From: Escherichia coli
GTDB lineage: Bacteria; Pseudomonadota; Gammaproteobacteria; Enterobacterales; Enterobacteriaceae
NCBI RefSeq assembly: GCF_024298765.1
Contig: NZ_CP101210.1
Direction: 5' to 3' (one strand)
DNA: 64,000 nt
Shown here: positions 10,089 through 62,593 of the stretch, piece by piece
How positions within the stretch are numbered: position 1 is the first letter of the stretch
Layout of the letters: each line of letters starts with the position of its first letter
Translations under genes and position numbers: made by a program
The notes under the pieces: generated by a model
Database searches by the model: none
Seen by the model: only the letters and a program-made list of their open reading frames with translations
What the model was told of the DNA's origin: nothing

Positions 10089-10094
10089 TGACCA

Positions 10095-10123: not shown

Positions 10124-10202
10124 CCCGCCGACTAACATCCTTCCCCCGTCCGTTGTATAGTGACCTCTCTCTTGCGGTTCCATCTGTTCTTGCGAGGTGT
10201 TT

Positions 10203-42032: not shown

Positions 42033-42581
42033 TCACTGAGCTGTAATCAATGTACAGCGCTGTACCGGACGATGGGTAATGGCGGTCACAACCGGTAACC
42101 CCAGAGACAATGCGACTGTTTTTAACGCAACATACTGACCGGATGTATCACCCCGGGCAACCCGAAAACACCTTTCCACCCGGCATTGTCCGCCAGCACT
42201 TATCACCTGCCAGCTATGTTGCAGTAAATCCACCACTTGCGAACATTGTTCATCAACTGTGACACAGGCTCGCGGGTGACAAATACTCGTCTGGCTGAGC
42301 AGCAACAGGCATCGAATTGTTGCTCCTCCATGTTGTTCCCGCAACCAGCGTAATACCACCGACGATGATGGACTGGCAGTGTGATTGCTCTCAGTAATAC
42401 GTTCATGCAGTTGTCGATAAAAGGAAGTACAGAATGCATGAATCTGTTGCCCGTTGATATTTCCTTCTGCCGAATGGAGTGTGAAGTAAAATGCCAGCAA
42501 ATGCGGCCAGTGGTCCACCGCCTGCTGAACAAAACGCCGGATGTCTCCCGGCTCTGAAATTAAGGCTTCGGTTATTTGCAC
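42033..42581 (-). CDS. YfjJ/YagK (inovirus Gp2-like) family protein, possibly degenerate
   Basis: 182-aa ORF; pattern ...RWLREQHGG..IRCLLLLSQ... parallels ...FWCREFGKMYGRKHYHVILLLNKD... of the paralogue at 61862..62593. Confidence 0.4.
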   Translation of the reverse strand: MQITEALISEPGDIRRFVQQAVDHWPHLLAFYFTLHSAEGNINGQQIHAFCTSFYRQLHERITESNHTASPSSSVVLRWLREQHGGATIRCLLLLSQTSICHPRACVTVDEQCSQVVDLLQHSWQVISAGGQCRVERCFRVARGDTSGQYVALKTVALSLGLPVVTAITHRPVQRCTLITAQ

Positions 42582-43026
42582 GAAATGTTCCTTTTCAAAC
42601 CCTGTTGGATTTTGTCAAGACGGTACAGACACAGTAAAGCGCGCATCAACACCTGAAAGGTACGATACAAACACAAGTTACAAACAATAAGAACGGAAGG
42701 ACAATTAATCAGTGAGGAATAATAACTAAATTAACCAAAAGAATGTTACTGACAATACCACCAATACTTAAATAGCAATATATTAATTAATGTAAGAACA
42801 GATGCCCGGTAAGACATATACACAATACATCCACAAACACACTCTTTTCATTAAATAAATCACCTGATTAAACCATGAAAGTGTGATGTAAGTCAAAATT
42901 ACTGACACAATCAATTGATAATGATTATCTCTATCATTATCGTGAAATTCGAGAATGAAAGGAGAAGTAGTCATTATAAGTCTTTTATAAATCGTCATCA
43001 TCATAGTAAAGTAGAACACTTTTTAT

Positions 43027-43485
43027 ATGAGTTACTATATGAAAATATACTGGACAAGAAAAAACATTCCTGAACTTTCAGCACTTCCACCTTCATTAAG
43101 AAAGAAAAATTTTACTGACGCATATAATGCTGCATCTTCCCATATCGAATACTGGATAGGTGCTGGCGTCTCATTTATCTCGATGATGATTTTATTCAAA
43201 GTATATGACTTTCTTTTACCCGCCCAAGATACTTTCCCGGGTGATATCATAAGAAGTTTATGTGTTGTGTGTCCATCCATATTAATCTGGTTTCAGTTTT
43301 CGGTATATGTCATGAGGAAATATTACAGACATATTCTGGAACGAGGTAAGGAAACCGAAACCATTTCAGAAAGGTTGATACGTGAGGCTGATACACGAGA
43401 ATATGAATTATGGCGTCCGGCCCATCGCTTTTTCTCCATTATTCTATTAGTTTGCATTCATTCACTGATAACAACTATAAAATAA
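43027..43485 (+). CDS. hypothetical small membrane protein at edge of microcin cluster
   Basis: 152-aa ORF with 2-3 hydrophobic helices; no recognizable family. Confidence 0.4.
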   Translation: MSYYMKIYWTRKNIPELSALPPSLRKKNFTDAYNAASSHIEYWIGAGVSFISMMILFKVYDFLLPAQDTFPGDIIRSLCVVCPSILIWFQFSVYVMRKYYRHILERGKETETISERLIREADTREYELWRPAHRFFSIILLVCIHSLITTIK

Positions 43486-43584
43486 AAGTTATGGCTGTTC
43501 TGATACAGGAAAATAAACGTTCATTCTATGGTTACCTCTTCCTGTTATATAAAAGAATTTTAAACAACAAGTAAGGGAATATAA

Positions 43585-44271
43585 ATGGAAATAACAAAAA
43601 ATAAAAATGCAACTATAAAAAAACAGTCATCAGCCGGCTGCTTTTCAATGTTTACTTTATCATTTTCCATTACCTTTATTCCTGCATTTCTTACAAACAG
43701 GCAGGAACTTATATCCAGGGGGCTTCTTGTTCCAGCATTATTTCTTGCTGAATTTCTAATTCTTGTTCCACTGTATTTTATTTTCTTCCGAAAAAGAGAA
43801 GGATTAGGAAGAGGTTCTTTTCGACTGGATGTTTTTTTTACTCTTTTCTCTTTAATAATGATTATTCAGTTATTTGTCCCTTATCTGCTGGCAGTGAGGA
43901 AAACGGAAGAATGGATGATCTCGCAAATGTCTTTTTCCGGGGCCATTTTATGGATTAATATATTTTCTTCCGTACTTCTTGTTCCTGTATATGAAGAGAT
44001 TGTATTTCGAGGGTGTCTTTTTAACTCTTTTAAATTCTGGTTTAATGACAATATTTACATCTCTGCTATTGTAACATCAGTCATATTTTCTGCATTACAT
44101 CTACAATATACTGACTTTCGTACATTTTTGATGCTCTTTCTGATATCGTTAGTTCTTATCAGTGCAAAAATAAAGTCGAATGGCCTGTTAATGCCCATAT
44201 TACTTCACATGGCGATGAATGCAGTCATAACAGGAATACAATATACGTTACAATATCACATAACAGTCTGA
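43585..44271 (+). CDS. CPBP-family (CAAX protease/Abi) intramembrane protein, MceF/McmM-like microcin accessory protein
   Basis: 228-aa polytopic ORF with CPBP motifs EEIVFRG, FSALH and HMAMN; such genes accompany class II bacteriocin/microcin loci. Confidence 0.7.
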   Translation: MEITKNKNATIKKQSSAGCFSMFTLSFSITFIPAFLTNRQELISRGLLVPALFLAEFLILVPLYFIFFRKREGLGRGSFRLDVFFTLFSLIMIIQLFVPYLLAVRKTEEWMISQMSFSGAILWINIFSSVLLVPVYEEIVFRGCLFNSFKFWFNDNIYISAIVTSVIFSALHLQYTDFRTFLMLFLISLVLISAKIKSNGLLMPILLHMAMNAVITGIQYTLQYHITV

Positions 44272-44644
44272 AATTGTTATTATGAGATATCTATAACACC
44301 TGAAGTTGGAAAAAGAAGCAAATAATTCCTTATAAGGAATCGTTTACTAATATATTTAGATGATCTCATATTTGTTTATGATATACATCTGATTAAGATA
44401 TAATGGATTATAAATTACTCAAAGGTGAACAAATATCTTCGCCTTTTCTCGTAGAAAGAGACTTGAAACTTATAATACATCTATATAAACGTGATTTAAA
44501 TCACGATTTGCAGTAAAAGCAATTGGTATAATTCATTGGTATTACTATTATTTCATCTATTGCACGAACTATTTTACAACAATAAAAAAGATATACAAAC
44601 AGCAAGAAGTAAAAATATTCGGATAAATAAAAATTTTTGCTACC

Positions 44645-44881
44645 TTGGTTTCTATAGTCTTTATTTCTAAGTTTTTCATAAGCACTCAAAGACTCATGTA
44701 TAGGGACGGTTTAATAATGAAACTATTTTTTTATTTCTCGTTGTTCTTTATAATACAACTTATAAATTCAGACTTAGACACATTAACCCTTTATCTTTTC
44801 ATAAAGAAAATAATTCTTTCGTTACTTGCGAGTGTACTGTTTTTATTTGTTTTATCTTTCTTTAATAAAAAGAGGAAATAA
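44645..44881 (+). CDS. small hydrophobic protein, candidate microcin immunity protein
   Basis: 78-aa ORF (alternative start at 44717 gives 54 aa) ending 1 nt before the microcin-like precursor gene; two predicted TM helices. Confidence 0.45.
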   Translation: MVSIVFISKFFISTQRLMYRDGLIMKLFFYFSLFFIIQLINSDLDTLTLYLFIKKIILSLLASVLFLFVLSFFNKKRK

Positions 44882-44882
44882 C

Positions 44883-45206
44883 ATGAGAAATATAACAACC
44901 GATGAACTTGCTTTAATACATGGTGCAGGATTAGATAAAGATGCATCCGTTGCAATAGGTACTGCGGCTGGTGGTTTTTTAGGTAAAGCAACAAAAATCC
45001 CTGGTGCGGATATAGCAGGAAGTGCAATTGGAGGATATATTGGAGGAGTTATTGCTGATGGTTCAAATAGGACAATAACAATACCATCAAACGGTATTAA
45101 CTATAATCCGGGTATAGGACTTGGAAGTTTTAATCCAAACTACAATGGAGGTTTATTAAACTCAGGATTTAACTCATCAACATCCTCTTCTAGTAGTGGA
45201 AGTTGA
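44883..45206 (+). CDS. double-glycine-leader class IIb (siderophore-type) microcin precursor, identity unassigned
   Basis: ORF track 44826..45206; start at ATG 44883 (RBS aagagg) gives 107 aa; leader MRNITTDELALIHGA-G parallels MchB leader; Gly-rich core; Ser-rich C-terminal tail NSSTSSSSSGS. Confidence 0.65.
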   Translation: MRNITTDELALIHGAGLDKDASVAIGTAAGGFLGKATKIPGADIAGSAIGGYIGGVIADGSNRTITIPSNGINYNPGIGLGSFNPNYNGGLLNSGFNSSTSSSSSGS

Positions 45207-45266
45207 TTAATTTCTAAAGCAGCATAGCTTATTATGCAGCAATGCTGCTTTTAGTGATATATTATC

Positions 45267-47369
45267 CTAATTTGTAATTCTAAAAATCCGATCAACTGTT
45301 CTTAAAGTTGTCTCTCTATGTGCAATAATCACCCGGGTGATATTCATCTTTTTTATAGCAGCATTCACGAAACGTTCACTTTCTGTATCAAGAGAACTTG
45401 TAGCCTCATCCATAAATAATATTCCAGGTTTCCGGTATAAAGCTCGGGCAATGAATATACGCTGTTTTTGACCGCCGGAAAGACCTTCCCCCAGTTCACC
45501 TATTAACGTTTCATACCCCATTGGCATTTTCATTATCACATCATGAATATGACTTGCTCTGGCACATTCTGTCATCCATTCGTCGTCTGTTTCTTCTGCA
45601 AACCCACAGATATTTTCACGAATTGATCCTGAAAATAGCCGGTCGTCCTGCATAACACAGGCTATCATACGGTGATAATTATTTATTCCAAGTTGACGTA
45701 TATCCGTGCCATTAACCAGTACTTTTCCACTATCTGGTTCAAACAGTCCACATAATACTTTCATTAATGTGGTTTTTCCGGCACCGGAGGCACCAGTTAT
45801 AGCCACACTTTCTCCCGGAGCCACAGACAAATTCAGACCACTGAATACCTGTGCTGACTGGCTGTCATACCGGTAGCTTAAATCAGTGGTTTCCAGTGAA
45901 ACCGGGCTCATGTCAGCAACGATTTCAATTTCCGGTTTCTTTTCTTCCTTTTCATGTAGTGCAATATCTGCAATGCGCTCATTATGCAGACTCATTATTC
46001 TCAGTTGAAGAAGAAAACTGGTCAGCGAAGCAACCCGATCCGAAAACTGCCCACGAAAAGAACCAAATGCCACAAACATCCCTATTGTCATCTGATTATC
46101 GATCACAAGGCTTGCACCCAGCCATAAAATCGCCACCTGATCACAGGCGGCAACAAAAGTATTTATCCCCCCGAAGAGCAAATCCATCCTGGTTAACTTA
46201 ATACCTGAATTGATCGCATCTATTTTCAGGTTAAGCCAGTGTGTTCCCCGAATCCCAGCCATACCCTGGATTTTTACCGTGGCAATACCATACAGGCTTT
46301 CCATAAAATAGGAGCTGGCCCGGGCCCCCCTGACAAGAGTTTCTTCCGATATTTGCCGGTAATAGCCGTATGTCACCAGACGAATAAGAACGTAAACCAT
46401 GGTAAAACCGAGCACTATCCAGGTAAGATATCCTCCATATAACAGCATCATCACAAAAACACCCACAACCATAATACTGTCCATGATTGCCCCAACAACA
46501 CAGGTGGTAAAGGTGGCCCTCAAAGTGTCAAGGGAGCCAAAACGCGACTGGATATCACCTAATTTACGGCGTTCAAAAAACGCCAGCGGCAGTCTGAGAA
46601 GATGGTTAAACAGACCCGACTGCCACTGTATATTGATGAGCGTGCTCATAACCAGTGAGGACCATGCACGCAGCATACTCACCGCGGCCCTGAGCAATAT
46701 AAAGAACATCAGGCCAGCAGAAATAAGCGTCAGCAGCCCTCTGTCCCCCGCCGGAATCGCATGATCCATAACCAGCTGAGTTCCCACCGGCATTACCAGA
46801 TTGATTGCTTCAATTACAACTGACAGACAGAAAATTTTCGCCAGTGTTCTTTTAATACCGTAAATACTGTTAATCAGTGAACGGAGACTTATGCGGGTCT
46901 GCTGGGTTTCCGCCAGGAATTCACTTCCGGGCCAGACCTCAAGTGCAATGCCCGTAAAATACCGGCTCATTTCCTCCCGACCGAGATATCTTCTGCCTCT
47001 GGCCGGATCATGCAGTACATAACGGTTACGCTTTACGCTGACCAGCACGACGAAGTGACTGAAATCCCAGTGGAGAATACACGGCATTTTGAGGGCACCA
47101 AGTTCATCCAGCTCCAGTGAAAGAGCCCGGGTGACCATCCCCAGCTGCTCCGCTATTCCATTGATTCCTGCAAGGTTTGCTCCACGGGCCGAGAGATTAA
47201 ACTTCCGGCGAAGAGATATCAGGTCAATATTCTTACCAAAATGACCGCATATCATTGCCAGGCAGGCCAGTCCACATTCAGCGGTCTCCGTCTGATGAAT
47301 AACCGGAACACGACGTCGCCAGCGCATATCAAGCTGATTTATAATTTGTCTGAAATTCCCGTTAGTCAT
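45267..47369 (-). CDS. mchF: microcin export ABC transporter with N-terminal C39 peptidase domain (CvaB/MchF family)
   Basis: ORF track 45267..47387; near-identical over long stretches to remembered CvaB ([32 protein letters not shown]...); Walker [10 protein letters not shown], signature LSGGQKQR. Confidence 0.9.
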
Positions 47370-48636
47370 TGAGCGGTCCTGTTGCACTGTGTTTCATGTC
47401 ATAGAAAGGAGAAAGCATCCACTGGTAAATACGCCTTTTTTCCAGAAATAGTGTACTTTCGGCTTTCATTCCATTTTCCAGAGGGAGGTATTTTTCGTCA
47501 TATCTGATAATCTGCTTTTCAGGCATCGCAATGACTTTATACCAGGGAACAGAGTCGCCCGGCGTATTCTGTGGTGCTCCCTTATAGGTCAACATTTCCT
47601 GTGTTGACGCAGGAGTCCTGGATATAGTTTTAACCGTAGCAGAGAACTGCCCAAATTTTTCTGCCGGAAAGGCTTCATAACGAATATTCACTTTGTCACC
47701 AGCCGAAATATAAGGAACAGCATCATTCGGGACCCAGAGAATAAGATAATAGTTTTCAATGTTCTCAGGAATAACCTGCAGAAGGCTGTCTCCGGTATTG
47801 ACCATTTGCCCGACAGTGACACTCAAGGAGTCAACTTTCCCGTCAGTCAACGCCCGGATAATGATTTCGCCCTCCACATCAGTGTTAACCAGTTCTTTCT
47901 GTAACTCATACCGTTGCAGTTCCATCTGGTAGATACGGTTATCAAAATCTGCAGCCTGAGTCTGAATCTGACTCTCCAGAGTGGTTATCTGCAGGGCATT
48001 CTGTTCGTTCTGTCCGCTCAGGCTGAGAAGATTGTTTTGTTGCTGATAATATAATGCCACCTGGTTAGTTAACTGATCTTTATTAATCAGCCCTTTTGCC
48101 TGATAGTTTCTGTAATTCTCCATATTGTTTTTCATTATTTTTATCCCTTCCTCTGCACGCTGTATAATATCTGATGAGCGACGAAACGCATCTGTGTATT
48201 GCAGGCGTTGTTTTTCCAGGGTATCTAGCGTTATTTTTTTACTTTCTTCCAGACGGGAAATAATGTTGTCCACACGAACCAACTGGTTTTCTATATCCCG
48301 ACGATGATTATCAGTGACAATACCACTACGTGTACTTTTACTGATGTCAATCAGATAAACAGGATCCCCTTTTTTTATCAACTGTCCTTCATGAACAAAC
48401 TGCCTGACAACAAATCCCTGTACACCTGAATATATATTGACAGCTCTTGGCCAGGTTGTGACCTCACCACTGACATTAACACGGCGGCTATAGGTACCAA
48501 CAATAATGAACATCAGAAATGCCGTAATAAACACTATGCTTCCCAGCATGATTAACCATAGTGGTATTCCGGGAAGTAATATTGCCCGTCCCTGCCACTT
48601 CATTTTTCTGTTTTCTAAAGCATCCTGACGAAACAA
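47362..48636 (-). CDS. mchE: microcin secretion membrane-fusion protein (CvaA/MchE, HlyD family)
   Basis: 424-aa ORF; N-terminal TM anchor, coiled-coil region; matches remembered CvaA. Confidence 0.9.
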
Positions 48637-48788
48637 AATAGCTCCTCTTACTCACACTTTTCCTGTAATACCTTCACTGGTTAACCGAAATGCTATAATC
48701 AAAGCCAGAAAATATAGAGTCCTGTTAAAATAGTATCAGCGATGCATTTACCCCGTAATTTACAATTATCTCTGTATCTTCAGAGGTA

Positions 48789-49241
48789 CTACGTTTTATG
48801 CAGCCGCTCAGGGATGTATGTCACAATTTTCTTTCGCCTGCTTAACCATCGTACTTCTCCTTCTCCCCATGGCTGAAGCTGTATGAGATAGTCAATAACT
48901 TTTCGACCAAAGCCTGGTTTACAACAGAAATCCAGAATCCAAATCCTTCCATCTTCATTCCATTCAGACGGATGCAACCTGAATTCTGGATCCCTGAGCA
49001 GGCGCGCTTCTGTATCAGCCTCAAGATATGCCCAGGTAATATACGCCAGTGGAAAACCTCGTGAATCAAACAGGAATTTAATCTGATTATGCTGTATCGC
49101 ATATTCAGTCCAGTATTGAATGGTTAACACCGGATACAGACTGTAATTACGATTGTAGAGCATACAACTGACCGCAAAACCGATCTGTTCATAAACAGTC
49201 CATTCATCTTTTCCTCTGATGTTTTCCCTTATATAAGACAT
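48789..49241 (-). CDS. mchD: microcin maturation accessory protein (MchD/MceI-like)
   Basis: 150-aa ORF between mchE and mchC; assignment by synteny with the H47/E492 systems as remembered. Confidence 0.55.
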   Translation of the reverse strand: MSYIRENIRGKDEWTVYEQIGFAVSCMLYNRNYSLYPVLTIQYWTEYAIQHNQIKFLFDSRGFPLAYITWAYLEADTEARLLRDPEFRLHPSEWNEDGRIWILDFCCKPGFGRKVIDYLIQLQPWGEGEVRWLSRRKKIVTYIPERLHKT

Positions 49242-49266
49242 GATTACTATTTCCCTTATATATTTT

Positions 49267-50817
49267 TTACACTGTGTTTCTTATCGGTTCAAGATATCCA
49301 AATGCATCTCTGGAAAACTTAAGCATAAAATTTTTCATATCAGAAATTGCTTCTTGTAAAAAAAGGGGATCATCGCCATGATTATCCAGCAGGATGGCAA
49401 TTTTTTCGCACATATTCTCTTTCCTCAGCTCTTCCCTGGGTTGCAGCCTTTTCATGGTATGATGTTCAATTTCTTTCAGGAGTAATGAGGCATTTATCTG
49501 ACGTCTGGTACTGCCTTGCGTCAGCCAGTGGATGGCCTGGGAAAAACACTGTTGTGCAACGGTGAAATAAACATCATTCTTGATGCTACTATTCAGTGCC
49601 TGCTTTTGATTATGCCTATGATGGATTAGCGTCACAACCAACTTTTGCAATGGTGAACCATCCTGATTGACAATATCTTGGGCATGTGATTTCTCGCAGT
49701 ATTGATTGAGTAATGCAACAAAACTGTTAACCAGTTCTTTCAATATATCAGGTATCTCTTTTTGTGTTATAAATTCTCCAGGAATACCCAACAGTTCTAG
49801 ATAACAGTAATAACATGCTTCATGAAAAGTTTTCTGAAATATCTCCTCAACCTTCAAACGGGCTGCAAGAGTGAAGTCAGGGTCAAACATATATTTTCCG
49901 ATATACAAGCAGAGATCAGACAGCCCTTGCATAAGTACCATCGGTTCTTTTGCCAGTTCAGCTAATCTTAGTTTATACCCAAAATCAGCTGGGGAATCTC
50001 CCGGAAACAGACAACTGAGTCCGCTAAAATCCATTAATCTGCCATCCATTGCAATATTAGAAGGAGAAGTTGTCAATCTCAGGAAACGTGTTCGACAAAA
50101 TGCCATTTGCCAGGCCTCACGACGTGCCAGTTCACATAACCCCTCAATGCAATAAATCCGGGGATCAGTTCGTGCTTCAGCATCAATTTCTTCCGGTGGT
50201 ACAGGTAGATATCCTGGCAGCTTGTGGATCACAGATCTAACCCGACAGGCATCGTGAATTAACAGACTGGAATACTCCGGTTTTACTTGGAAGTAAGGTG
50301 CCCGTTCAAAATGCGCCGGACGAACAACAGGCTCACGTACCAACAGGGCTCTTCGTGATTTCCTACCGGAGCGCTCAAATGCCTTTTCAGTATAGAGATC
50401 TGTAAGTAAAACCGCCCGAACCCGCACAGCACTATAAGGTAATATTTGAGCCAGTACTTCTCCCCACAAAGCCTCATATATTGCATGAACAGCGCCGAGT
50501 GCACCATTAGAATGACGTTCGTCAGTACCTTCGCCAACCAACGGATTACTTCCTATTCCTTTAACCTGGTAGTTACCATCAAACCCACAACGTGCACCAC
50601 CTCCATTACGCTGAATACCACTGCCACCATAGCGCTCTGCATGGAACACTTTGGCAGAAGCTGTACTGCCAGGATCGATAATATAACTGCAGGCATTTTG
50701 CAGCTCGTCTGGATTTCTGACATCCTCTGCACACCAGATTAATGAGGCCTTGATCTGCCTGGCAGTGAAAGGCACCAGGTTTTCATTCAGTTCAGAAAGT
50801 GAACACTGATGACTCAT
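49267..50817 (-). CDS. mchC: microcin maturation protein (MchC/MceJ-like)
   Basis: 516-aa ORF immediately downstream of mchB; size and position match remembered MchC. Confidence 0.6.
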   Translation of the reverse strand: MSHQCSLSELNENLVPFTARQIKASLIWCAEDVRNPDELQNACSYIIDPGSTASAKVFHAERYGGSGIQRNGGGARCGFDGNYQVKGIGSNPLVGEGTDERHSNGALGAVHAIYEALWGEVLAQILPYSAVRVRAVLLTDLYTEKAFERSGRKSRRALLVREPVVRPAHFERAPYFQVKPEYSSLLIHDACRVRSVIHKLPGYLPVPPEEIDAEARTDPRIYCIEGLCELARREAWQMAFCRTRFLRLTTSPSNIAMDGRLMDFSGLSCLFPGDSPADFGYKLRLAELAKEPMVLMQGLSDLCLYIGKYMFDPDFTLAARLKVEEIFQKTFHEACYYCYLELLGIPGEFITQKEIPDILKELVNSFVALLNQYCEKSHAQDIVNQDGSPLQKLVVTLIHHRHNQKQALNSSIKNDVYFTVAQQCFSQAIHWLTQGSTRRQINASLLLKEIEHHTMKRLQPREELRKENMCEKIAILLDNHGDDPLFLQEAISDMKNFMLKFSRDAFGYLEPIRNTV

Positions 50818-51088
50818 CTGGCAGTATTCTCCGTTTCAATTTTCATAAAAGAGTGTTCATAAAAGAGCAAGTAAGTGTCCTGACAGCTTCTTCCTTATTA
50901 CAGTAAAACTCTATTAATTACACATAAATTAAAAAATTATTTATCAACGACTGTAAATCATATCTTCATCAGTAAAGTGTTGAACATAAAAACACACTTA
51001 TAAATGGATCTTCTATCTGTTTTAAACAAAAAGGATATATTTTACAGGTACTACCGAAAAAGTGCCTGTAAAATAAATAAAAATATAA

Positions 51089-51316
51089 TTAGCTACCGCC
51101 ACCAGCAGAAGAACTGGCACTACCACTTCCCACGGTCGAGCCAATTGCTGTTGTCAAACCGGCAGATACGGCTCCAACTACAACCCCAAGTGGACCACCA
51201 GGTATTCCGGCGAGAGCTCCAACAATAGCTGCAGCACCTGCAGCATTAGCTGAAGTCGCTGGCGCACCTCCCGCCCCGGAAATATATCTTAACTGTGATT
51301 CTGTTATTTCTGGCAT
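51089..51316 (-). CDS. mchB: microcin H47 precursor
   Basis: 75-aa ORF M(P)EITESQLRYISGA-GGAPATSANAAGAAAIVGALAGIPGGPLGVVVGAVSAGLTTAIGSTVGSGSASSSAGGGS; core matches remembered MccH47 sequence. Confidence 0.9.
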   Translation of the reverse strand: MPEITESQLRYISGAGGAPATSANAAGAAAIVGALAGIPGGPLGVVVGAVSAGLTTAIGSTVGSGSASSSAGGGS

Positions 51317-51343
51317 ATAAACTGCATATAAACTCCATCATAT

Positions 51344-51553
51344 TTAACTTCCGTTTTTCCAGTCTGACCAGACCAGAATCCTTCGAATCCCATGAATCAG
51401 CTCAATAAAACCAAGAAATATTATAAAGCTTAGAAAAACGTCAACATAAGAATTCCCTTCGCCAACAATCCGAAGGGATGAAAGTGAAACCAATAAGATA
51501 GTAATAGGTAAACTGAATATAGCCGTCAATTGGGACAGTTTTTTATAACTCAT
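51344..51553 (-). CDS. mchI: microcin H47 immunity protein
   Basis: 69-aa hydrophobic ORF immediately upstream of mchB on same strand; size matches MchI. Confidence 0.75.
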   Translation of the reverse strand: MSYKKLSQLTAIFSLPITILLVSLSSLRIVGEGNSYVDVFLSFIIFLGFIELIHGIRRILVWSDWKNGS

Positions 51554-51964
51554 TAATCCCTACCTGTTGCTTTATTTTCATTATGAAAAGTTACCAAATC
51601 TTAGCACCTCAGTCAGGAGAGTCAGGTCATCGATAAAGAATATTCCAGTAGAGTGGCGCTCATGATCAAAGATAACAGCAAAGTTGATGACAGTGCTGAC
51701 CGACTGTCATTTACAGAAACCCTGTTTGTAGCAAATTCCATCTTACCTGACCTCACCCAGACAAAGACAAAAGAGAATGATTGTTATTTACTTTTCAAAA
51801 AAAGTGTCATATTGTCCATATAAAGTCAAGAGGTATTTTACGTTATGTCACTGATGCAATTGTTAGTCAGGATCTCATGGTTGTCGCTCATGTATAACCT
51901 GAGACTTGAACGCACACTAATAGCGCTGACGGTCATACATCGGGAAATGTGAGGAGGCATAAGA

Positions 51965-52210: not shown

Positions 52211-52365
52211 CAAACATTTTTGCAAACTGATACCTGATCAGGTACAAGCCTGTTGATTATTATGCTGAATATTTCATGTTATAAAACCATCGATATAAAC
52301 ATTAACAAGAAAAAACATATATTGTTTATCTGAACATTTATCGATGGAAAACCAAAGGGGAAAGT

Positions 52366-52800: not shown

Positions 52801-52816
52801 GCAGGAGGTTTTTAAA

Positions 52817-53053
52817 ATGAGAGAAATATCAGATCACATGCTTGATTTCGTGAAAGGAGGGATGAATCTTAATGGATTACCTAGTTCTACTAATGTAATA
52901 GATCTACGAGGAAAAGATATGGGAACATATATTGATGCTAATGGAACATGCTGGGCTCCGGGTACTCCATCCATCATCATGTATCCGGGGGGAAGTGGAC
53001 CTTCTTATAGTATGAGTAGTTCCACATCCAGCGTAAACAGCGGCACATCATAA
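52817..53053 (+). CDS. double-glycine-leader class IIb microcin-like precursor (possibly MccI47-type; identity not confirmed)
   Basis: 78-aa ORF; leader MREISDHMLDFVKGG; Ser-rich C-terminus SMSSSTSSVNSGTS; located next to IroD/IroB homologues. Confidence 0.6.
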   Translation: MREISDHMLDFVKGGMNLNGLPSSTNVIDLRGKDMGTYIDANGTCWAPGTPSIIMYPGGSGPSYSMSSSTSSVNSGTS

Positions 53054-53337
53054 ATACCCTCCGGCATGGCCGGAGGGTATTTATGATGTGCCTGTAAGAC
53101 TCTACTTCTGTCGTCTCTTTACAAAGGCATATGATCTGTCATTTTGTACCAGACATCTTAACGAGAGCCTTTTCATATATTACTTACATACGTGAAATCT
53201 ACAGTATAAAGCAAAAATTTTATTAAACCTGTTTTATATTTATCATCAATACAACAGATTTAATTCCGGAAAGTCACTCATCATCCCTTGAATGAACGTC
53301 ATTTGATGTATTATTCTTACACTTGGATTAATTTAAG

Positions 53338-54612
53338 ATGATACCTATGAAAAACTATCTTTTCCAGACTCCCGAAGATATTTGTGTACAGTTAAAAAAA
53401 ATGACACATCCTGTCACAATAAGAACAACAGATATTGCTAATTTCTGGCACTATCTTGAGTCAGCAACACTTCCAGTGATCACAAAAAGCACCACTACAG
53501 AAAATCGGGAGGTTACATTTCTGTGGCGCTCAGAGAAAGCACTGCAAGGCGTATATCTTCGCCTGAATCGTGTTACAGATAAAAAAGACGTCAAAAAAGG
53601 ACTAATGACTCATATCCCTTCGACAGATATCTGGATGCTGACACTGGTGTTACCAGCTTCATATCGGGGCTCATACTCATTTATAGAAATTCCCACAGAT
53701 ATGACACAAAAAGACATATTTCAACTAGGAAGTCGCTTCTCTCCATTACCCGGTAAATCTGATCCATTTAACAAAACAGCAGAAATAAATATACGAGGAT
53801 TCGGAGAATCAGTCCTTTCTCTTGATATGGCTCCTGAACAAAAGGAATGGGATGATACTTCCCATAAATGTACAGGTATTCTTTCAATATTACATTCCTT
53901 TGTTGCAGGATATCAACGCCGGATTCGTTTATATTTCCCCCTGAATCCAACATCAGTACCTCTTGGATTACTTGTGTTACCTGATGCTGAAACATGGTTT
54001 GACCGGATAGATATTACCCGGGCATTAGATATGGCCATCACCACTGGTCGTATCACGCCAATGGCAATTATGGGGATAGACAATATTAATGAATCTGATC
54101 GTATGAATATACTGGGAGGCAATAAAGAACTCATCTTTGATATAGCGGAAAATCTGATACCCCAGTTATACAGAGACTATCCGGATATCGTATGGGCTGG
54201 TCGCTCTAATACTGTACTGGCCGGGCAGAGCCTCGGTGGAGTGACAGCACTGATGGCAGCTATATATGCGTCGACAACATTTGGTACAATCATTAGTCAC
54301 TCACCTTCAATGTGGTGGAACCCTGACCAGGGCAGCCCGATCTTGTTTACTGAGAATAATACCTCCTGGGTAAGTGAGCAGATACTTTCAGCGCCTCCGA
54401 AAGATGTAAATATCCGACTTGGAGTCGGTTCTTTAGAAGGTACAACCGTCTCACATGTTCAGCGATTGCATCATTCGTTAATCGCAGCTGGTTTGGAAAG
54501 TAACCTCACTGTCTATACCGGTGGTCACGATTATGCTTGGTGGCGCGGAGCAATTATTGATGAATTAGCAAATTATAATTGCAGGAAGGTATCAAATAAT
54601 AACTCTGTGTAA
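53338..54612 (+). CDS. enterobactin/salmochelin esterase homologue (IroD/Fes-like; MceD/McmK/MchS1-type)
   Basis: 424-aa ORF with serine-hydrolase motif GQSLGG. Confidence 0.7.
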   Translation: MIPMKNYLFQTPEDICVQLKKMTHPVTIRTTDIANFWHYLESATLPVITKSTTTENREVTFLWRSEKALQGVYLRLNRVTDKKDVKKGLMTHIPSTDIWMLTLVLPASYRGSYSFIEIPTDMTQKDIFQLGSRFSPLPGKSDPFNKTAEINIRGFGESVLSLDMAPEQKEWDDTSHKCTGILSILHSFVAGYQRRIRLYFPLNPTSVPLGLLVLPDAETWFDRIDITRALDMAITTGRITPMAIMGIDNINESDRMNILGGNKELIFDIAENLIPQLYRDYPDIVWAGRSNTVLAGQSLGGVTALMAAIYASTTFGTIISHSPSMWWNPDQGSPILFTENNTSWVSEQILSAPPKDVNIRLGVGSLEGTTVSHVQRLHHSLIAAGLESNLTVYTGGHDYAWWRGAIIDELANYNCRKVSNNNSV

Positions 54613-54753
54613 AATATCGTTTTATCGTCCGATAACTCTTTCTGCAATATTATTATGGGAGACTGTCTCATTTATTTAGTGATGTCCTTCATTTATGTGA
54701 TGAAGGACATTATATTACTCATAACATTTCTCGTTGAAAATTTCAGCAATACG

Positions 54754-55878
54754 CTACAATTGTTTCCCGTTGTTTTTTAATTTTCTCATCAAAACCTCTG
54801 CGATCTCTGCAGGAGTGGGTTGTTCAGCCATTTCAGCGGCTACCTGATCTGAACAGAAGCGTAGTGAATCATCATAAAGCAGGCGATTTACCAAATCACT
54901 GGTCAGTCCATGCTTGTCCGGAATAATCCCACACCCACGCTTCGCAACAATTTCTGCATTAACAGAGCGATCTGCACCTTCTCCAAACACAATCTGTGGT
55001 ATTCCACTATACAGCGCTGTCAGGGTATTACCTGCGCCACCGTGATGAATAAATCCATCAGCTCCATTAAGGAATACACCCATAGGTATCCAGTCAACCA
55101 GACGTACATTTGATGGTAGTTTTCGTAATCCAGTACGAGCATTTATTGCAAGTTGCAAAATGATATCAGCATCAACTTCATTTGCTGAATCCATAACCCA
55201 TGAAATCAGCTCCAGACCATCAACCATTGGTTTTACAGTGCCAAGGCTGATGAGTAAACGTTTCCGATCAGAATCCCTGTCCCACCATGTTTCCTTTACA
55301 GCACCTCCGTTATAAGGAATATATCGCATTGAGATAATCGGTTCTTCAGCATTTTTAAGAATGCTCATACTTGGGGGAGCAACATCAATCCATGCTAAAT
55401 CACATAGTGGACCGCTGACTCCATGCCGCCTGTAAGCATTGCTTAAAGAACGGTTTAACATCTGAATATGGGCAGATGTATGCGCGAATCCAACAGCCAG
55501 CATCACTGAAGAAATTCTATATTTAGCAGCAACCAATGGGCCTGCCGGACCAAGCGGGGGATAGACTATTAAATCTGGCCTCCATTTTCCTGCAAAATCG
55601 ATGAGGTTATCTGCCATTTCATCGCTAAAAAAAGAGAAATGACCAATAATATTACTTTTTTTCCTCAACTCTTCCTGATGACGATATCCAGCCTCTGAAT
55701 CTAAACTTGGAGCTGCATCAAAAACAACCAGTCCAGCTTCTGCTGCTTTATTCGCGAATTTGCCAGCGCTACTAATTACTACATCATGTCCGATTACACG
55801 AAAGGCCTGAGCCAGAGAAATCAATGGGTATAACAAACCGTACAGCGGAGGGCCAATAAAAAGAATACGTTTTCGCAT
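54754..55878 (-). CDS. IroB-like C-glycosyltransferase (MceC/McmL/MchA-type) for siderophore-microcin maturation
   Basis: 374-aa ORF; GT1-family architecture; C-terminal donor-binding region ...HHGGAGNTLTALYSGIPQIVF... Confidence 0.7.
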   Translation of the reverse strand: MRKRILFIGPPLYGLLYPLISLAQAFRVIGHDVVISSAGKFANKAAEAGLVVFDAAPSLDSEAGYRHQEELRKKSNIIGHFSFFSDEMADNLIDFAGKWRPDLIVYPPLGPAGPLVAAKYRISSVMLAVGFAHTSAHIQMLNRSLSNAYRRHGVSGPLCDLAWIDVAPPSMSILKNAEEPIISMRYIPYNGGAVKETWWDRDSDRKRLLISLGTVKPMVDGLELISWVMDSANEVDADIILQLAINARTGLRKLPSNVRLVDWIPMGVFLNGADGFIHHGGAGNTLTALYSGIPQIVFGEGADRSVNAEIVAKRGCGIIPDKHGLTSDLVNRLLYDDSLRFCSDQVAAEMAEQPTPAEIAEVLMRKLKNNGKQL

Positions 55879-56554
55879 TAAAAAAGTCCGTCTTCTGCTT
55901 ACCTGTTTATTTTTCTATCGCTAAGAAAACATAATTAATATTATTTTTATGTGAGCTTATGCACAAAAATAACAAAGTATCTTATCTTCTGGTAGAGATA
56001 CAGGATACAGTTTGTAGGAGCTTTCTTTTTTTGAACAATGATTTGCAGGACAGTTATGCCAACCTAGCAGAATCAGTATCACAACAATAAATGACAGATC
56101 ATACCTGAAATTTGAATTAACAGGCATCATGAATGTCAATAGTCTAAGCGGTTACTACTTACATCGCTTGCATAAATACTAAACACTGACTAGAAAAGTA
56201 TTGGATAACCCCGTCACTAAAAGTAACACTTCGGTTATTTGCTCGGAATGTATCAACGCCAAGATTGTTAGCCGTTACGCCTTATATCACTGGCGCTGAC
56301 AAATGTTTCTTTTCTAATTTACTGAACCGGCGCAGACTTACAGAAAAACACTCCGGCACCGGTGTAATGCCAGTTATAAACAATGTGAATGGAATGACGA
56401 ATCAGTCAGGAAAGAGCTACAATCTGCTGGCTGACCGGAGAGGGTCAGCAGGAAGATGAACGGTAATGTCGCCAGCACCAGGGGCAGGGCCGGGTTCCAC
56501 AATACCAGCGCCGGCATTTTGCACATTGCCAGCGTACCGGCATCACAACACGTT

Positions 56555-56728
56555 TCATGCAGCTGCTCCTCGTGATTCCTCAATTCGCTGCTGCATCCAC
56601 TGCTCCACTTCACTTTTGTACCAGCGGCTGCTGCGGCCCAGCTTGATGGGTTTCGGGAAATGGCCTTCACTGATCAGCTTGTAAAACCATTTATCTGTCA
56701 TACCGGTGAAACTGGTGATGTAGTTCAT
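56555..56728 (-). CDS. alpA: AlpA-family phage/island transcriptional regulator
   Basis: ORF track 56555..56791; internal start gives MNYITSFTGMTDKWFYKLISEGHFPKPIKLGRSSRWYKSEVEQWM, typical Phage_AlpA HTH. Confidence 0.75.
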   Translation of the reverse strand: MNYITSFTGMTDKWFYKLISEGHFPKPIKLGRSSRWYKSEVEQWMQQRIEESRGAAA

Positions 56729-56859
56729 GTCGATCAGGGGATCGTCGGCACGCAGCAACACGCAGTCGTGGCCTGTCATTGAGGTCAACATGGTCAGAAT
56801 ATCCTCTGTGAGATTTATGAAGGTTGTGCGAATGCGGGGAAAGGTGCTGAGCCGTATTC

Positions 56860-57435
56860 TCAGAACGGTCCTGCAGATCCGGGATAGCCGGGATTACCGG
56901 CGAGGCAACGGGCTTCCGGATCGCACACACCACGACGATCGCGGGCGAAATCACTGAACGCCCAGATCAAATCTTTGAGGATGTCTTCGCAGTCCGGTGA
57001 ACGACTGTCCAGCACCACATCCCGGGTTATCTGTTTCTGGTACGGTGCCGCTTCCCCCGGTGACGCGAAGCCCAGTACGTTGCTCCAGGCATCCAGAATC
57101 AGCCGGTCCAGTTCGGGGCCGTCGAAATACTCCTGTCTGACGCACAGCACCACGTGGTATTCCGGCTTTTCCGGATGACGGGTCAGGAGCCAGCAAAGGT
57201 CGCGTCCGGGTTTCGCATTCATCAGCGCACTGACGGTTTCGATAAAATCCATACCAAACCAGGTCTGTCTGCTGTTGAAGGCGTTGTCATGTTCCCACGG
57301 CAGACGAAGCAGGATCCGCCGTATCCGTGAGCCGGACTGCTCACGCAGCGCACGCTCAAGGACGCCGATGACTTTGTTCTGATAAGATGGCCAGAAGGGT
57401 GCCAGGCTATAGTCGAAATAAGGAATAGCATTCAT
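56860..57435 (-). CDS. YfjJ/YagK (inovirus Gp2-like) family protein
   Basis: ORF track 56860..57567; start at MNAIPYFDYSLAPFW gives about 191 aa; downstream of alpA as in CP4-57-type islands. Confidence 0.6.
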   Translation of the reverse strand: MNAIPYFDYSLAPFWPSYQNKVIGVLERALREQSGSRIRRILLRLPWEHDNAFNSRQTWFGMDFIETVSALMNAKPGRDLCWLLTRHPEKPEYHVVLCVRQEYFDGPELDRLILDAWSNVLGFASPGEAAPYQKQITRDVVLDSRSPDCEDILKDLIWAFSDFARDRRGVCDPEARCLAGNPGYPGSAGPF

Positions 57436-57681
57436 AAGATATGTTCCGTTATGCGCAGCCCACAATGCGTCCTGCCCGTGAATGAGCTGACGTGTTATGG
57501 CTTGCGGATGAGATTGATGGAATAAGTGAAGAACTGAAGCAGAACGGGAAGATAAGGGACAGAACACCGGATTCAGGTTCAGGATGAATGATCTCCGTTG
57601 ACTTCAGTTCACATCATTAATCAATGCGGTAAGTTTTTACCGACGGAGTGTTTCCAGGAGCGGAGGCTCAGGCCTTAAGCT

Positions 57682-58248
57682 TCAGAAGTGAGGCTTACGA
57701 GGACGCCCTGCAGCAGGACGTTCAGGAACTTCATTGCAGCCGTAGGCACACAGCCCGTCTTTTTGTTCTTCTTTCGCCAGATAATGCAGGGCACCGCGAA
57801 TATTATCGATGCTTTCAGGATCGTTGTGGCGCACAGGAATGTTGATGTTGTATGCATAATGCGGCTGATATGTACAGCGGTGCGCCGAACCACAGTTATA
57901 CGTAATTGCCTGCCAGCATTCCGCTATCCGCTCCGCAAAGGGATATATTTTTTTAACCCTCTGACGATCGATCCAGAAAACGACATGCGCATGAAAACCA
58001 TGATCAGCCGTCCATTCAATCACCCAGAAGAAACCAACGATATTTTCAAATTGTTCCACCTGCTCCAGCAGCATACGCAACTGTAATTCAAGCCAGCGAT
58101 GATCAGGTTGTAAGAAATCGGGCGTATCTTTCCTGTAGAAGAAATCCATCCGTAAGGCCCGCAGGCAGGAATAGCGTGCCATCATTTGATTGATGTGATT
58201 GTCAAGTAAAGCGGTAAAAAACCAGTTTGGTGTGTAAGATTTAGGCAT
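57682..58248 (-). CDS. YfjJ/YagK (inovirus Gp2-like) family protein
   Basis: 188-aa ORF MPKSYTPNWFFTALLDNHINQMMARYSCLRALRMDFFYRKD...; paralogue of 56860..57435 and 61862..62593. Confidence 0.6.
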   Translation of the reverse strand: MPKSYTPNWFFTALLDNHINQMMARYSCLRALRMDFFYRKDTPDFLQPDHRWLELQLRMLLEQVEQFENIVGFFWVIEWTADHGFHAHVVFWIDRQRVKKIYPFAERIAECWQAITYNCGSAHRCTYQPHYAYNINIPVRHNDPESIDNIRGALHYLAKEEQKDGLCAYGCNEVPERPAAGRPRKPHF

Positions 58249-59665
58249 GTTGATGACTCCTGAAAGTTAATGATGTTTTAAGCTCTGTGAGCGAATTAAT
58301 GCTTTCGCTCATAATCAGATCTAAAACGGTAATAACTTACAGATGGTATTTATCAGGCATGCTGTAACAGAATGGATACGACGGATTATTAACGACACAC
58401 AGCGTTGTGCTGAAGGGTATGAGTTATCTGATGGCATTGTCTATAGAGATGAGATAAACGAGGTGCGAAGAAAATACAGATTCAATACAACACAGTGAAA
58501 TACAGAAAAATACGAACTGTAATCCCGCTGCCAGGCGGTTAGGAAACATATTACAACTATAAGCTCATGATTTGTAAATTTGCTCTCAGTGAGTCTGAAA
58601 AAACGTTTATAAGGTCACCACAATAAACTCACACGCGCTTATTCAATCTGTTTTCCAGGATATGAACGTTAACGACACACGATAGCATAAGACAACATAC
58701 AATGGATGAATAATTTTCACCCAGTACCTTAAACAATACAACCGGCAACAAATATAATCAGAAATTCACTCTGTTAATTCTGTTGTTTATCCTGCGCTGT
58801 TAAACATGACGGAATCATGGATACCTTATCAAAGAGTAAACATTCAGTTAATCTGTGATGACAGAGAAATTGTTTCCAACCAGAATAGTTAAAACACTTC
58901 AGATAAACAATCATTGTTAAGCAAATACAGTTCATGATGGATAAGATTAAAATCAATTGCTGTTTCACTGAAAATGAGAACAGATGGATATCAGCAATAG
59001 CGTAGTAGAGAATAACTTATCCGAACATCATATGAGTTACAGTAATTATGATTGAGGGGGATGGAGTGGATACGATAACAAGAGTAAATAAAGACAGAGT
59101 AAAAGTAAAGGGCAAGTGTAATAATAGTAATAAACCTAAATTAAAATTATCCATGTTTGATGTAAAAATAATAATATACTGACAACCATGAAGGTAAGAA
59201 AAAGAGAGTGCAGGTATCAGGAAGATCTCAGGATATGAAGATTCCCACAGCACAGATTTAAAATTAGTCGAATATAATAAATTTAAAAACCTTAATTAAA
59301 ATGTAATCTCATCCATGGTTAACATGCTCCTGAAAAGGAAAGTTACAAATACCGTATGCTACCAACTAATTACAACAATGATATATGTACATTCAGTAAG
59401 AATACAGATAAAATATTAATACCAACTTCCAGTATCAAGATCGTATCGCGAACTTCAGATGCGCTATGAGGCAGTTCAATTTTTAACTTTCGTTTTCCTC
59501 TTCCTCCCTGGCTTCATATGCATAAGCGACTTGAAAGACCCGATGATAGTTACAATTTCAGGTTGTGGCATGACGATCAATTTGTAACTGAAACAATGAA
59601 CGGTAACGCTGCCATATAAACATCAAAATGCGAGCATTACAGCGACATTGAACCGATTAGATGTA

Positions 59666-60406: not shown

Positions 60407-60899
60407 CACTGAAAGCCTCAACGCATAATCGGCCGTTTAGGATAGCCAACCATCAGATGCTGCATTTGCATAGTGCAATCTCCCCTTACTTATCCGGAGG
60501 CAATTGCAATATCTCTGTGAACTTACACACAGGTATAATCAATAAGGGCGTACGGAGATTGCCCGTTATTGCTGCAGGATCGGCAGACTGGTTCCCGTCC
60601 TTGCGCATATAACTGTACAACCACAGAGAAAAGCATCAATGCACGCTTTATGTTGCGTCAGGGCAGCGAACGACTCCTTTTGTTGACGACACATATCACC
60701 TTCTGTACTGCCAATTATGGCATTCAGCGTCTCCCCGAGTTTTAAGCTCCTGCTCTTACGAACCAGCGACAAGCAATAAATAACTATGGCAATGAATCTA
60801 ATAACAGCATAAATATGAGACTCATCGATACTCATCGTGATTAGTATAATCGGGGCAGAATTATATTCACTGTCTGATTTATTATTGAGTTAAATATAA

Positions 60900-61352
60900 T
60901 TAAAGTGTTCTCAAAAGTCTGGCTGGATTACCGGCATACACGCCTTTTACCAGCACGGGCTTTGTAACCACACTACCAGCACCAATCACTGCTCCACTGC
61001 AAATTTCTGTGGTTAAAATGGTCGCTCCGCTACCCACTGTTACAGTGTTACCTAATACGATGCGTATCCAGCTTTCTGCAGAGGCATCGGGACCACCACA
61101 CTTAAAAAGATCATTAGCAAAAGTTACGCCATGACCGATGAAACAGCCATCACCTAAAATGACGTTCTCACAGATGAAACTGTGGGACTGAATTCGGCTC
61201 CGGTTGCCAATGATACATCCCTTCTGTATTTCCACAAAGGGACCGATAAAAACATCATCCCCCAGTTCACATTCATAGAGGTTTACTGGCATGACGACTT
61301 TCACATTTTCACCAAATTTCACATCACGAATGCGGCTGTCAATAACGTTCAT
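60900..61352 (-). CDS. hexapeptide-repeat (left-handed beta-helix) acetyltransferase
   Basis: 150-aa ORF with tandem [LIV]-G-x-x-x-x hexapeptide repeats (IGDGCFIGHGVTF, LGNTVTVGSGATI, SGAVIGAGSVV). Confidence 0.75.
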   Translation of the reverse strand: MNVIDSRIRDVKFGENVKVVMPVNLYECELGDDVFIGPFVEIQKGCIIGNRSRIQSHSFICENVILGDGCFIGHGVTFANDLFKCGGPDASAESWIRIVLGNTVTVGSGATILTTEICSGAVIGAGSVVTKPVLVKGVYAGNPARLLRTL

Positions 61353-61861
61353 ATCCGTTGTATCCTCCCTCAGGATGATTCTTATCAGAACATTTCACCT
61401 GTCAGAATATTCCCGGTAATGTGATACAAGAGCCAGTCTCACCGGGTACCATGTGTTATTGCTCGTATCCTTTTGCCCGTTACGAGTGTACAACCGGTTT
61501 TATATTTTGCAATCCAGGCCTGTTACACCAGAGCATCCTCTCACTGCCCCCTCACTGGTCAATCCGGGATTCAAAGTCATCCTCCAGCACTAAACCCCAT
61601 ACCAGTCCTGAACCTTCCCTCGCCAGCAGCCAGACTCCTACTGTTCACCACAATCCTCTTCCGTGAATGGCCGTAAGTGCGCAGCACCAAAATAAATCGG
61701 TACTTCCGATGACAGACAGTGAAAGCGTCAGAGAAATATGAACATGAGAATGGAAGCAGATACATGACTTCAGGACGACTTTTTCAGAAAACGAGCTAAG
61801 GGCGTCAGCCAACGACCTTACCGTGGTATACGCTCAGGCGCCGGATGCCGTTTTACCCGGT

Positions 61862-62593
61862 TCACCTGCCATCCAGCAAACGCCCCGGCCCACGACTGCA
61901 ACCATAATTACGTTGCCCGGAACCGTCATGCTGCTTCGTCTCATATTTCACGAGATAACTGGCTCTGTTCCGGGCTTTCTGCATCGCTTCCACATCACCA
62001 CGCTTGATCCAGAGAACAGCGGCTTCACCAGACTTTTTGTCTGAAGCCTTCCAGGTATCAGAACATCCACCCGACAAAGGCGTGTCATCGGAAGAAGGGC
62101 GAACATCAGACGATGCTGGTTTACGGGAAGGCGTCCACCTGGAAAAATGGACCAGGCCATCGCCTTGCCAGGGCTCAAGATGCAGGGCGCTGCACCATGC
62201 CTCCTGGATCATCGTCGCCAGCGAAGACGGTTCGCTGAAATCCCCGAGCGAGCACCAGGTATCTTTGTTGAGCAGTAATATCACGTGATAATGTTTCCTG
62301 CCATACATCTTGCCGAACTCCCGGCACCAGAAATAACCCAGGCTGGTTGCATGCACACGCTGATTGGCACATCTTTTTTTCCGCTGGTAAGCCTGAATTT
62401 TGGCTTTCAGGGATGCAAAAAAACGAGAAATCACCGCTGAATCCGGATCGGGATCCATGATGGTGACAGGCATATACTCAGGGAAACGTAAATCCACCCG
62501 GATTAACGAGACGGCACGGTGCTGCGCCAGGGCACTGTCGAGAAGGCTGTCAAAACGGGATAACCAGTAAGCATTGTGTATTGGTTGATTCAT
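61862..62593 (-). CDS. YfjJ/YagK (inovirus Gp2-like) family protein
   Basis: 243-aa ORF MNQPIHNAYWLSRFDSLLDSALAQHRAVSLIRVDLRFPEY...; CP4-like island backbone family. Confidence 0.6.
   Translation of the reverse strand: MNQPIHNAYWLSRFDSLLDSALAQHRAVSLIRVDLRFPEYMPVTIMDPDPDSAVISRFFASLKAKIQAYQRKKRCANQRVHATSLGYFWCREFGKMYGRKHYHVILLLNKDTWCSLGDFSEPSSLATMIQEAWCSALHLEPWQGDGLVHFSRWTPSRKPASSDVRPSSDDTPLSGGCSDTWKASDKKSGEAAVLWIKRGDVEAMQKARNRASYLVKYETKQHDGSGQRNYGCSRGPGRLLDGR

Follow-up and report, generated by a model that had tools for sequence, protein, structure and literature searches.

We analyzed a 64,000-nucleotide stretch of Escherichia coli DNA (contig NZ_CP101210.1; hereafter the window), with the focus on four genes, designated here A, B, C and D, and on the alpA gene located among them. 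The window starts with E. coli core genes, from epmB to dicD, which are followed by a tRNA-Phe gene (pheU; positions 12933-13008, plus strand) and then by a genomic island that extends to the end of the window. The island is anchored by this tRNA gene together with a tyrosine integrase gene (13206-14468, plus strand), the only one in the window. As in CP4-57-type elements, the integrase is of the P4 type and lies beside a tRNA attachment site. A search of the window with the 23-nt 3' end of tRNA-Phe, allowing up to 3 mismatches, gave a single match; this count of a single attachment site covers the window only, which stops inside the island.

D, C, B, alpA and A are all located on the minus strand and are transcribed toward the integrase end. 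The region that contains them is 99.9-100% identical to several chromosomes of avian and human E. coli. On the identical DNA, RefSeq lists the following genes, all on the minus strand: D, an acyltransferase gene, a fragment of an insertion sequence (IS) or helix-turn-helix (HTH) gene, an H-NS fragment, C, B, alpA, the microcin H47/M cluster, A, and a 5'-truncated cdiA gene with cdiI. D is labeled in this database as an 'inovirus Gp2 family protein', C as a 'YagK/YfjJ domain-containing / inovirus-type Gp2 protein' and alpA as an 'HTH regulator', and both A and B are labeled 'hypothetical protein'.

A first-pass annotation of the window had reported the four open reading frames (ORFs) and alpA, and all five were found where it had placed them. 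The identity of AlpA was confirmed by PF05930. The alpA gene (56555-56791, minus strand), present in one copy in the window, encodes an AlpA-family HTH regulator of 78 amino acids, which matches this profile with an E value of 2e-10 (40.8 bits; gathering cut-off 21 bits) and is 25% identical to AlpA of E. coli K-12 (E 4e-6).

YagK/YfjJ-type genes of the pheU island

D (61862-62593, minus strand; 243 amino acids) is a bona fide YagK/YfjJ ('inovirus Gp2') protein. It matches PF11726 over profile positions 2-170 of 170 (122.3 bits, E 2.5e-35; gathering cut-off 25.8 bits) and shares 31% identity with K-12 YfjJ (E 7.6e-26). The HUH-nuclease fold is accompanied in this protein by an H-U-H motif (H101-Y-H103) and a Y-x-x-K motif (Y213-L-V-K216), and the residues of both motifs are invariant or nearly so across the D family.

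C (57682-58248, minus strand; 188 amino acids) is a divergent protein of the YagK/YfjJ type, identified by profiles and BLASTP. Its matches to PF23343 (E 1.1e-5, 26.1 bits) and PF11726 (E 4.8e-4, 20.5 bits) fall below the respective gathering cut-offs of 27.8 and 25.8 bits. C also matches phrog_7120 (E 1.1e-10), and a C-like fragment from Klebsiella aerogenes exceeds the PF23343 cut-off (33.5 bits). When C was aligned with the D-family profile by hhalign (P 1.1e-4), 170 columns were colinear, and the HAH and YLAK motifs of C (H86-A-H88 and Y156-L-A-K159) were aligned to HYH and YLVK of D. Judged by these profiles and motifs, D is a clear member of the YagK/YfjJ family and C is a divergent member.

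B (56860-57435, minus strand; 191 amino acids) is a highly divergent relative that was recognized by profile comparison. It had no match in Pfam, NCBIfam or any other family library scanned. Alignment of the B family with the D family by hhalign gave a probability of 97.5% (E 5.9e-12), a B-family hidden Markov model matched D at 2.7e-5 among 770 ORFs of the window, and BLASTP of B against K-12 YfjJ gave an E value of 2.5e-5. In an exhaustive search with B, two distant full-length relatives were found, P0196 (34% identity, E 2e-14) and P0203 (32% identity), the former of which exceeds the PF11726 cut-off with 41.8 bits. The HUH position is occupied in B by E92-Y-H94, and family-wide by E, C or F followed by Y-H. 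No catalytic Tyr was evident in B, whose C-terminal helix contains an invariant W158 and no Tyr; the C-terminal correspondence was established by eye. B is a cryptic and probably catalytically dead relative of YagK/YfjJ proteins.

The start codon of B is an ATG inside a longer ORF (56860-57567), and it is preceded by a conserved 5' leader of approximately 190 nt. A part of this leader (57578-57642) is 76% identical to 68 nt upstream of D (62589-62656), ribosome-binding region included, and the ATG of D aligns with an in-frame CTG at 57582-57580 in the B leader. A version of B with a 49-codon N-terminal extension from this CTG was considered and rejected: two related loci (L006 and L010) have an in-frame stop codon in the leader, which assigns the start of B to the ATG at 57435.

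The first-pass annotation described a family pattern common to all four proteins and regarded a lack of significant pairwise similarity as the finding that would speak against it. For D, C and B, the pattern was borne out by Pfam, BLASTP and profile comparisons, and for A it is only probable (hhalign P 1e-4 to 4e-4; discussed in the next section). In pairwise BLASTP alignments, C and D showed significant similarity (E 9e-5), and the other five pairs had E values of at least 0.038. Similarity is therefore formally lacking in five of the six pairs, yet such a test is too blunt for this family. A comparison of the window with itself revealed no gene-length repeats and, among the four genes, no similarity at the DNA level apart from the 68-nt stretch upstream of B and D. 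With neither DNA similarity nor gene-length repeats, recent duplication was rejected as the origin of these genes. Their sequences place D, C and B, as lineages that separated long ago, in the YagK/YfjJ ('inovirus Gp2-like') superfamily, whose fold is that of HUH rolling-circle Rep proteins, and the paralogues are ancient and not recent copies.

B, C and D also have in common an upstream palindrome of 16 nt, CNGTAA-N4-TTACNG. This pattern has exactly three matches in the 64-kb window, compared with 0.03 expected, a count that mainly shows specificity, as these three sites had served to define the pattern. The first site, CAGTAAAACTTTACGG (62643-62658), is located 50-65 nt upstream of the D ATG and occurs at the same relative position in two related loci (L010 and L011). 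The second, CGGTAATAACTTACAG (58327-58342), is located 79-94 nt upstream of the C ATG, and the third, CGGTAAGTTTTTACCG (57627-57642), lies within the B leader. Together, the sites span 50-190 nt upstream of the three genes, and their position is conserved in related E. coli loci. The palindrome is a candidate operator, or possibly a hairpin, common to B, C and D. In addition, two tandem 17-nt units (AACGTAAAGATTTACTAAA), each with a GTAA-N4-TTAC core, lie in intergenic DNA on the right side of D (63460-63500).

Gene A and the UCP030791 family

A (42033-42581, minus strand; 182 amino acids) was assigned to the UCP030791 family (PF27752) on the basis of its near-identity to annotated proteins. 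Proteins that are 77-95% identical to A carry a precomputed PF27752 assignment, and a syntenic orthologue is named 'UCP030791 family' by RefSeq. A itself had no match in scans of Pfam, NCBIfam, PHROGs and PADLOC. A scan of genome contigs with A returned two close relatives only, and tblastn with A against plasmids identified a homologue in K. aerogenes.

Comparison of strains (42033-42581 of the window with 6001-6513 of L006) revealed that A is approximately twice as diverged as its neighbors, with a synonymous divergence (dS) of 0.37 versus 0.17-0.20 for C, B and alpA. C-terminal length variants of 170, 178 and 182 amino acids occur as well. The divergence and the length variants fit the position of A, where conserved backbone gives way to variable cargo.

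The relationship of A to the other three proteins had to be weighed against the possibility that A is an independent small ferredoxin-like UCP030791 protein, which is unrelated to YagK/YfjJ, happens to lie beside alpA, and resembles these proteins in its motifs by chance. Several findings are in line with this possibility. Neither PF11726 nor PF23343 matched A or any A-family member scanned, and BLASTP of A against B, C, D and YfjJ was negative. A has no HUH residues, with T-I-R where D has H-Y-H, and the A family lacks both HUH and YxxK motifs. The hhalign probability of A against the D family was 36-58% at P values of 1e-4 to 4e-4 and varied with the alignment, from only 2 to 58% across all of them.

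On the other hand, the register of A and D was identical in every hhalign run (A14-125 with D14-134), and the same segments were paired, i.e., HLLAFYFTLH with VSLIRVDLRF, VVLRWLRE with LGYFWCRE, TIRCLLLL with HYHVILLL, and VDLLQHSW with ATMIQEAW. The score climbed as divergent members joined the A family: it was 21.6 (P 0.024) with E. coli A sequences only, 29.1 (P 0.0012) after the K. aerogenes homologue was added, and 35.9 (P 1e-4, probability 58%) after addition of a metagenomic protein, A21, which is 23% identical to A. No column-shuffle control reached the A-D score (0 of 300 in one test, and 0 of 250, with z 7.2, in another). A distant A-family protein matched D in the same register by BLASTP (E 0.006), and A-family proteins are named 'inovirus Gp2 family' in some database entries. 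Secondary structure, predicted independently for the two proteins, is also consistent with a relationship. AlphaFold models of A (predicted local distance difference test, pLDDT, 66.5) and D (pLDDT 75.7) have the common order helix-strand-helix-strand-strand-helix-strand-helix, and the positions of these elements agree with the sequence alignment. Considering the profiles and models together, we regard A as a probable remote, HUH-less relative of YagK/YfjJ proteins, and its independent origin as unlikely.

A different question is whether A and B are functional at all, or whether they are decaying pseudogene remnants of YfjJ-like genes that have no function of their own. Both have lost the catalytic motifs, their distribution is narrow and mostly limited to E. 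coli, and truncated or frameshifted variants of them are numerous in databases. However, purifying selection was detected on all five genes, with ratios of nonsynonymous to synonymous substitution (dN/dS) in the range 0.10-0.32, including 0.10 for alpA, 0.12-0.14 for C, 0.12-0.21 for B and 0.32 for A, the values for the latter two having been obtained at a dS of 0.2-0.37. In addition, A and B are conserved as intact, full-length ORFs in thousands of genomes, and intact distant homologues (23-34% identity) occur in the same neighborhood. These observations make it very improbable that A and B are pseudogene remnants.

Microcin H47 island and CDI locus

The DNA between alpA and A is occupied by the microcin H47/M island (42732-56209), which was delineated from the annotation of identical DNA and includes mchB, mchI, mchF, an HlyD-type exporter gene, mchS3, a glycosyltransferase gene and others. 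It is 13.5 kb long and has a low G+C content (29-48%). The island is bordered by imperfect direct repeats. The left repeat (42547-42731) overlaps the 5' end of A and the spacer upstream of it, and the right repeat (56210-56423) retains, as a remnant, the initial ~40 nt of an A-type gene. The two repeats are identical at 174 of 226 ungapped positions, with a score of 41 compared with 15.3 +/- 2.6 (maximum 27) for shuffled sequences. The alpA-A spacer is uninterrupted in L006, and this spacer aligns both with the right side of the window (56600 down to 56180), where it runs into the ~40-nt A-type start remnant, and with the left side (42731 down to 42480), where it continues from the spacer into the real A gene.

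The cluster in the window, flanked by imperfect repeats of ~145 bp and with an empty site in L006, shows no material difference from the published H47 genomic island, a mobile cluster of ~13 kb whose attL and attR (148 and 144 bp) are 76% identical (Azpiroz, Bascuas & Lavina 2011, PMC3191183). The published island is able to excise and integrate and has no recombinase of its own, and the empty attC site is widespread in pathogenic E. coli (PMC3191183; Azpiroz & Lavina 2017, PMC5426353). The recombinase that acts on it has never been identified (PMC5426353). The flanking genes were considered for this role and rejected: published deletions that retained just 71 and 95 bp of flanking DNA still excised in K-12, and A and alpA are thus not required in cis. 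What the present analysis adds is the location of attC, which comprises the spacer between alpA and A together with the initial codons of the UCP030791 gene. A lies 14 kb from alpA because the H47 island inserted at an attachment site that overlaps the 5' end of A.

Two further features were observed in this part of the window or its counterparts. A near-perfect palindrome of 51 nt (94% self-complementary; 53042-53092) is located inside the microcin island, where it overlaps the last codons of a small ORF (52817-53053) and lies upstream of an alpha/beta-hydrolase gene; it is probably a bidirectional terminator. In strain ACN002 (L001, 17481-18709), IS2 is present between the glycosyltransferase gene and alpA, near the right H47 repeat (~56.0-56.3 kb in the window), and it is absent in the window.

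The first-pass annotation had viewed A as possibly marking an old module boundary near 42 kb, at a junction between microcin genes and genes for contact-dependent growth inhibition (CDI). This holds for the microcin side, which A adjoins through the attachment site that overlaps its 5' end. The junction on the CDI side is an internal deletion. Its scar was located at 41755-41760, where 9,379 bp are absent relative to strain GPEC1031, with a 6-nt overlap: positions 41500-41760 of the window correspond to 1-261 of L023, and positions 41755-42700 to 9641-10585 of the same locus. The deleted DNA contained an ECs1377-family gene, a small ORF for a hypothetical protein, cdiB and the 5' two thirds of cdiA, and the remaining genes are an orphan cdiA 3' end and the immunity gene. 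The 41755-41760 junction is therefore a deletion inside the CDI locus and not the end of an element.

Organization of the backbone and possible functions

In six other E. coli chromosomes (L004-L009), genes for C (188 amino acids), B (191 amino acids), AlpA (77 amino acids) and an A-family protein (170 amino acids) follow one another without gaps. This 2.5-kb C-B-alpA-A module was found at a coverage of at least 80% in 1303 of 5426 complete E. coli genomes, and the median number of module places per genome with any match was 2. AlpA and YagK/YfjJ-like genes are thus a recurrent backbone of tRNA-associated E. coli islands, in agreement with the first-pass annotation. The association extends to other organisms. 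In a distant metagenomic lineage, AlpA is accompanied by C-like, B-like (P0196) and A-like (PF27752) genes, and AlpA, C-like and A-like genes occur together in K. aerogenes. One other genome repeats the order D, cargo (ireA), C-B. Morganellaceae have a D-like gene directly before AlpA, with defense cargo after AlpA, and these genes are oriented away from a GTPase/antirestriction/DUF932 arm.

This organization bears on the proposal of the first-pass annotation that several elements accreted in tandem, each YfjJ-like gene possibly being an old boundary; for the pheU island this would mean several CP4-57-type elements integrated in tandem at pheU. The island is indeed mosaic and contains several blocks of cargo as well as pieces of IS elements; IS and H-NS fragments lie between D and C, and cargo adjoins each of the copies. 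Moreover, given the single YfjJ-like gene directly before AlpA in Morganellaceae, two types of module could have fused long ago to give the layout seen in E. coli. A tandem array, however, should have repeated attachment sites and/or several integrase or AlpA genes, and the window has one integrase gene, one alpA gene and one tRNA-Phe 3' end. The C-B-alpA-A genes are contiguous elsewhere and conserved as a unit in the 1303 genomes, a distant lineage likewise carries AlpA together with C-like, B-like and A-like genes, and the four genes lack the DNA similarity expected of repeated copies of an element. Finally, the gap between alpA and A is accounted for by the H47 island, and the CDI junction at 42 kb by the internal deletion. 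Accretion of several elements is thus without support, is largely refuted for A, B and C, and is improbable for the array as a whole. We conclude, with a probability of approximately 75%, that the four genes and alpA form a conserved backbone arm of one island at tRNA-Phe (pheU), rather than a series of stacked elements.

Within the single backbone arm there are three variable cargo slots: one separates D from C, another separates alpA from A, and a third, occupied here by the CDI locus, lies downstream of A. In other E. coli (L004-L009, 7100-8700), the slot downstream of the A-family gene contains the Kiwa defense genes KwaA/KwaB, and in Morganellaceae (L018-L020, 5200-8588) the slot after AlpA contains NACHT/AAA or KAP-NTPase/QatB genes. 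The backbone slot downstream of A or after AlpA looks like a hotspot for defense cargo.

Several points weigh against the reading of one backbone built of related genes. The comparison of lineages leaves room for an ancient fusion of two module types, D-AlpA and AlpA-C-B-A. The AlphaFold model of A, at a pLDDT of 66.5, is of moderate confidence only, and searches of PDB sequences with the A and D family profiles matched no solved structure. The palindrome, in addition to having been defined from the sites that it describes, does not occur ahead of yfjJ in K-12 or of the homologues in K. aerogenes, Morganellaceae and the metagenomic lineage, and on this ground a family-wide palindrome was rejected. 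Lastly, the YagK/YfjJ family has no member of experimentally established function (PMC6174562).

Possible functions are suggested by the motifs. D and C, in which Rep motifs II (H-U-H) and III (Y-x-x-K) are intact, would most likely be DNA-binding proteins; because these motifs are retained, both are predicted to bind, and possibly nick, island DNA, and in this way to control the island after its excision or to replicate it. B and A, in which the corresponding residues are lost, would most likely serve as non-catalytic DNA-binding or regulatory partners. AlpA of CP4-57 is an activator of integrase/excision functions, and by analogy AlpA of the pheU island may be an HTH activator of such functions. 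The nicking and regulatory roles are predictions from the motifs. A more specific scheme, in which an HUH-Rep-derived paralogue system with intact (D, C) and degenerate (B, A) members acts on the palindromes as hairpin or operator sites, and thereby controls replication or maintenance of the excised island or single-strand capture of cargo at the flanking slots, the H47 attachment site included, is highly speculative and we consider it very unlikely. The palindrome and the pattern of active and inactive paralogues nevertheless offer concrete experimental handles on the function of the family.

Overall, this island backbone is ordinary and for the most part already known, and the current understanding of such islands is not overturned. 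The result is mainly a correction of annotation and interpretation, in that the scatter of the genes is explained by a mobile microcin island and a deletion. The new points are modest: B, and probably A, is a cryptic family member, the H47 attC has been placed within the module, and a palindrome is common to B, C and D. Their relevance lies in the fact that the C-B-alpA-A module is very common, being present in about one quarter of complete E. coli genomes and often in several copies, and that it holds two genes annotated as hypothetical. The analysis also provides a cleaner map of cargo entry, which occurs in the D-C slot, at the attC site that separates alpA from A, and in the slot downstream of A.

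With regard to known systems, A belongs to the UCP030791 family (PF27752, 'putative phage-derived protein') and is always located downstream of alpA and/or the B-like gene; the link of this family to YagK/YfjJ is proposed here solely from profile and topology evidence. Compared with the HUH superfamily, which includes rolling-circle Rep proteins, parvovirus NS1 and adeno-associated virus Rep, and IS200/IS605 TnpA, the proteins described here have no helicase or primase domain and no demonstrated origin, and two of the four (B and A) lack catalytic residues.

Another close known system is the cryptic prophage CP4-57 (intA-yfjH-alpA-yfjI-yfjJ ... yfjP GTPase arm). The pheU island shares with it a P4-type integrase by a tRNA-type gene, AlpA and a YfjJ-like gene, and the GTPase/DUF932/antirestriction/RadC/CbeA arm is present in relatives of the island. 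The differences concern the layout. In the window, alpA is 42 kb from the integrase gene, on the opposite strand and pointing toward it. The YfjJ/AlpA and GTPase arms diverge in orientation, in contrast to their codirectional arrangement in CP4-57. The gene order is D...C-B-alpA-A instead of alpA-yfjI-yfjJ, the int-alpA-yfjI-yfjJ arrangement does not occur, and no YfjI (DUF3987) gene is annotated in the island.

Within the YagK/YfjJ family (PF11726, formerly 'inovirus Gp2'/DUF3296), which includes K-12 YfjJ of CP4-57 and YagK of CP4-6, D is a standard member, and C and B are divergent members. The likeness consists of the HUH-type Rep fold, the motifs in D and C, and the occurrence in tRNA-associated islands with AlpA; the difference is that in B the first His and the Tyr are missing, and that B itself does not reach the Pfam cut-off. 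CP4-57 has one YagK/YfjJ gene, whereas the E. coli island backbone described here has three, which belong to different subfamilies.

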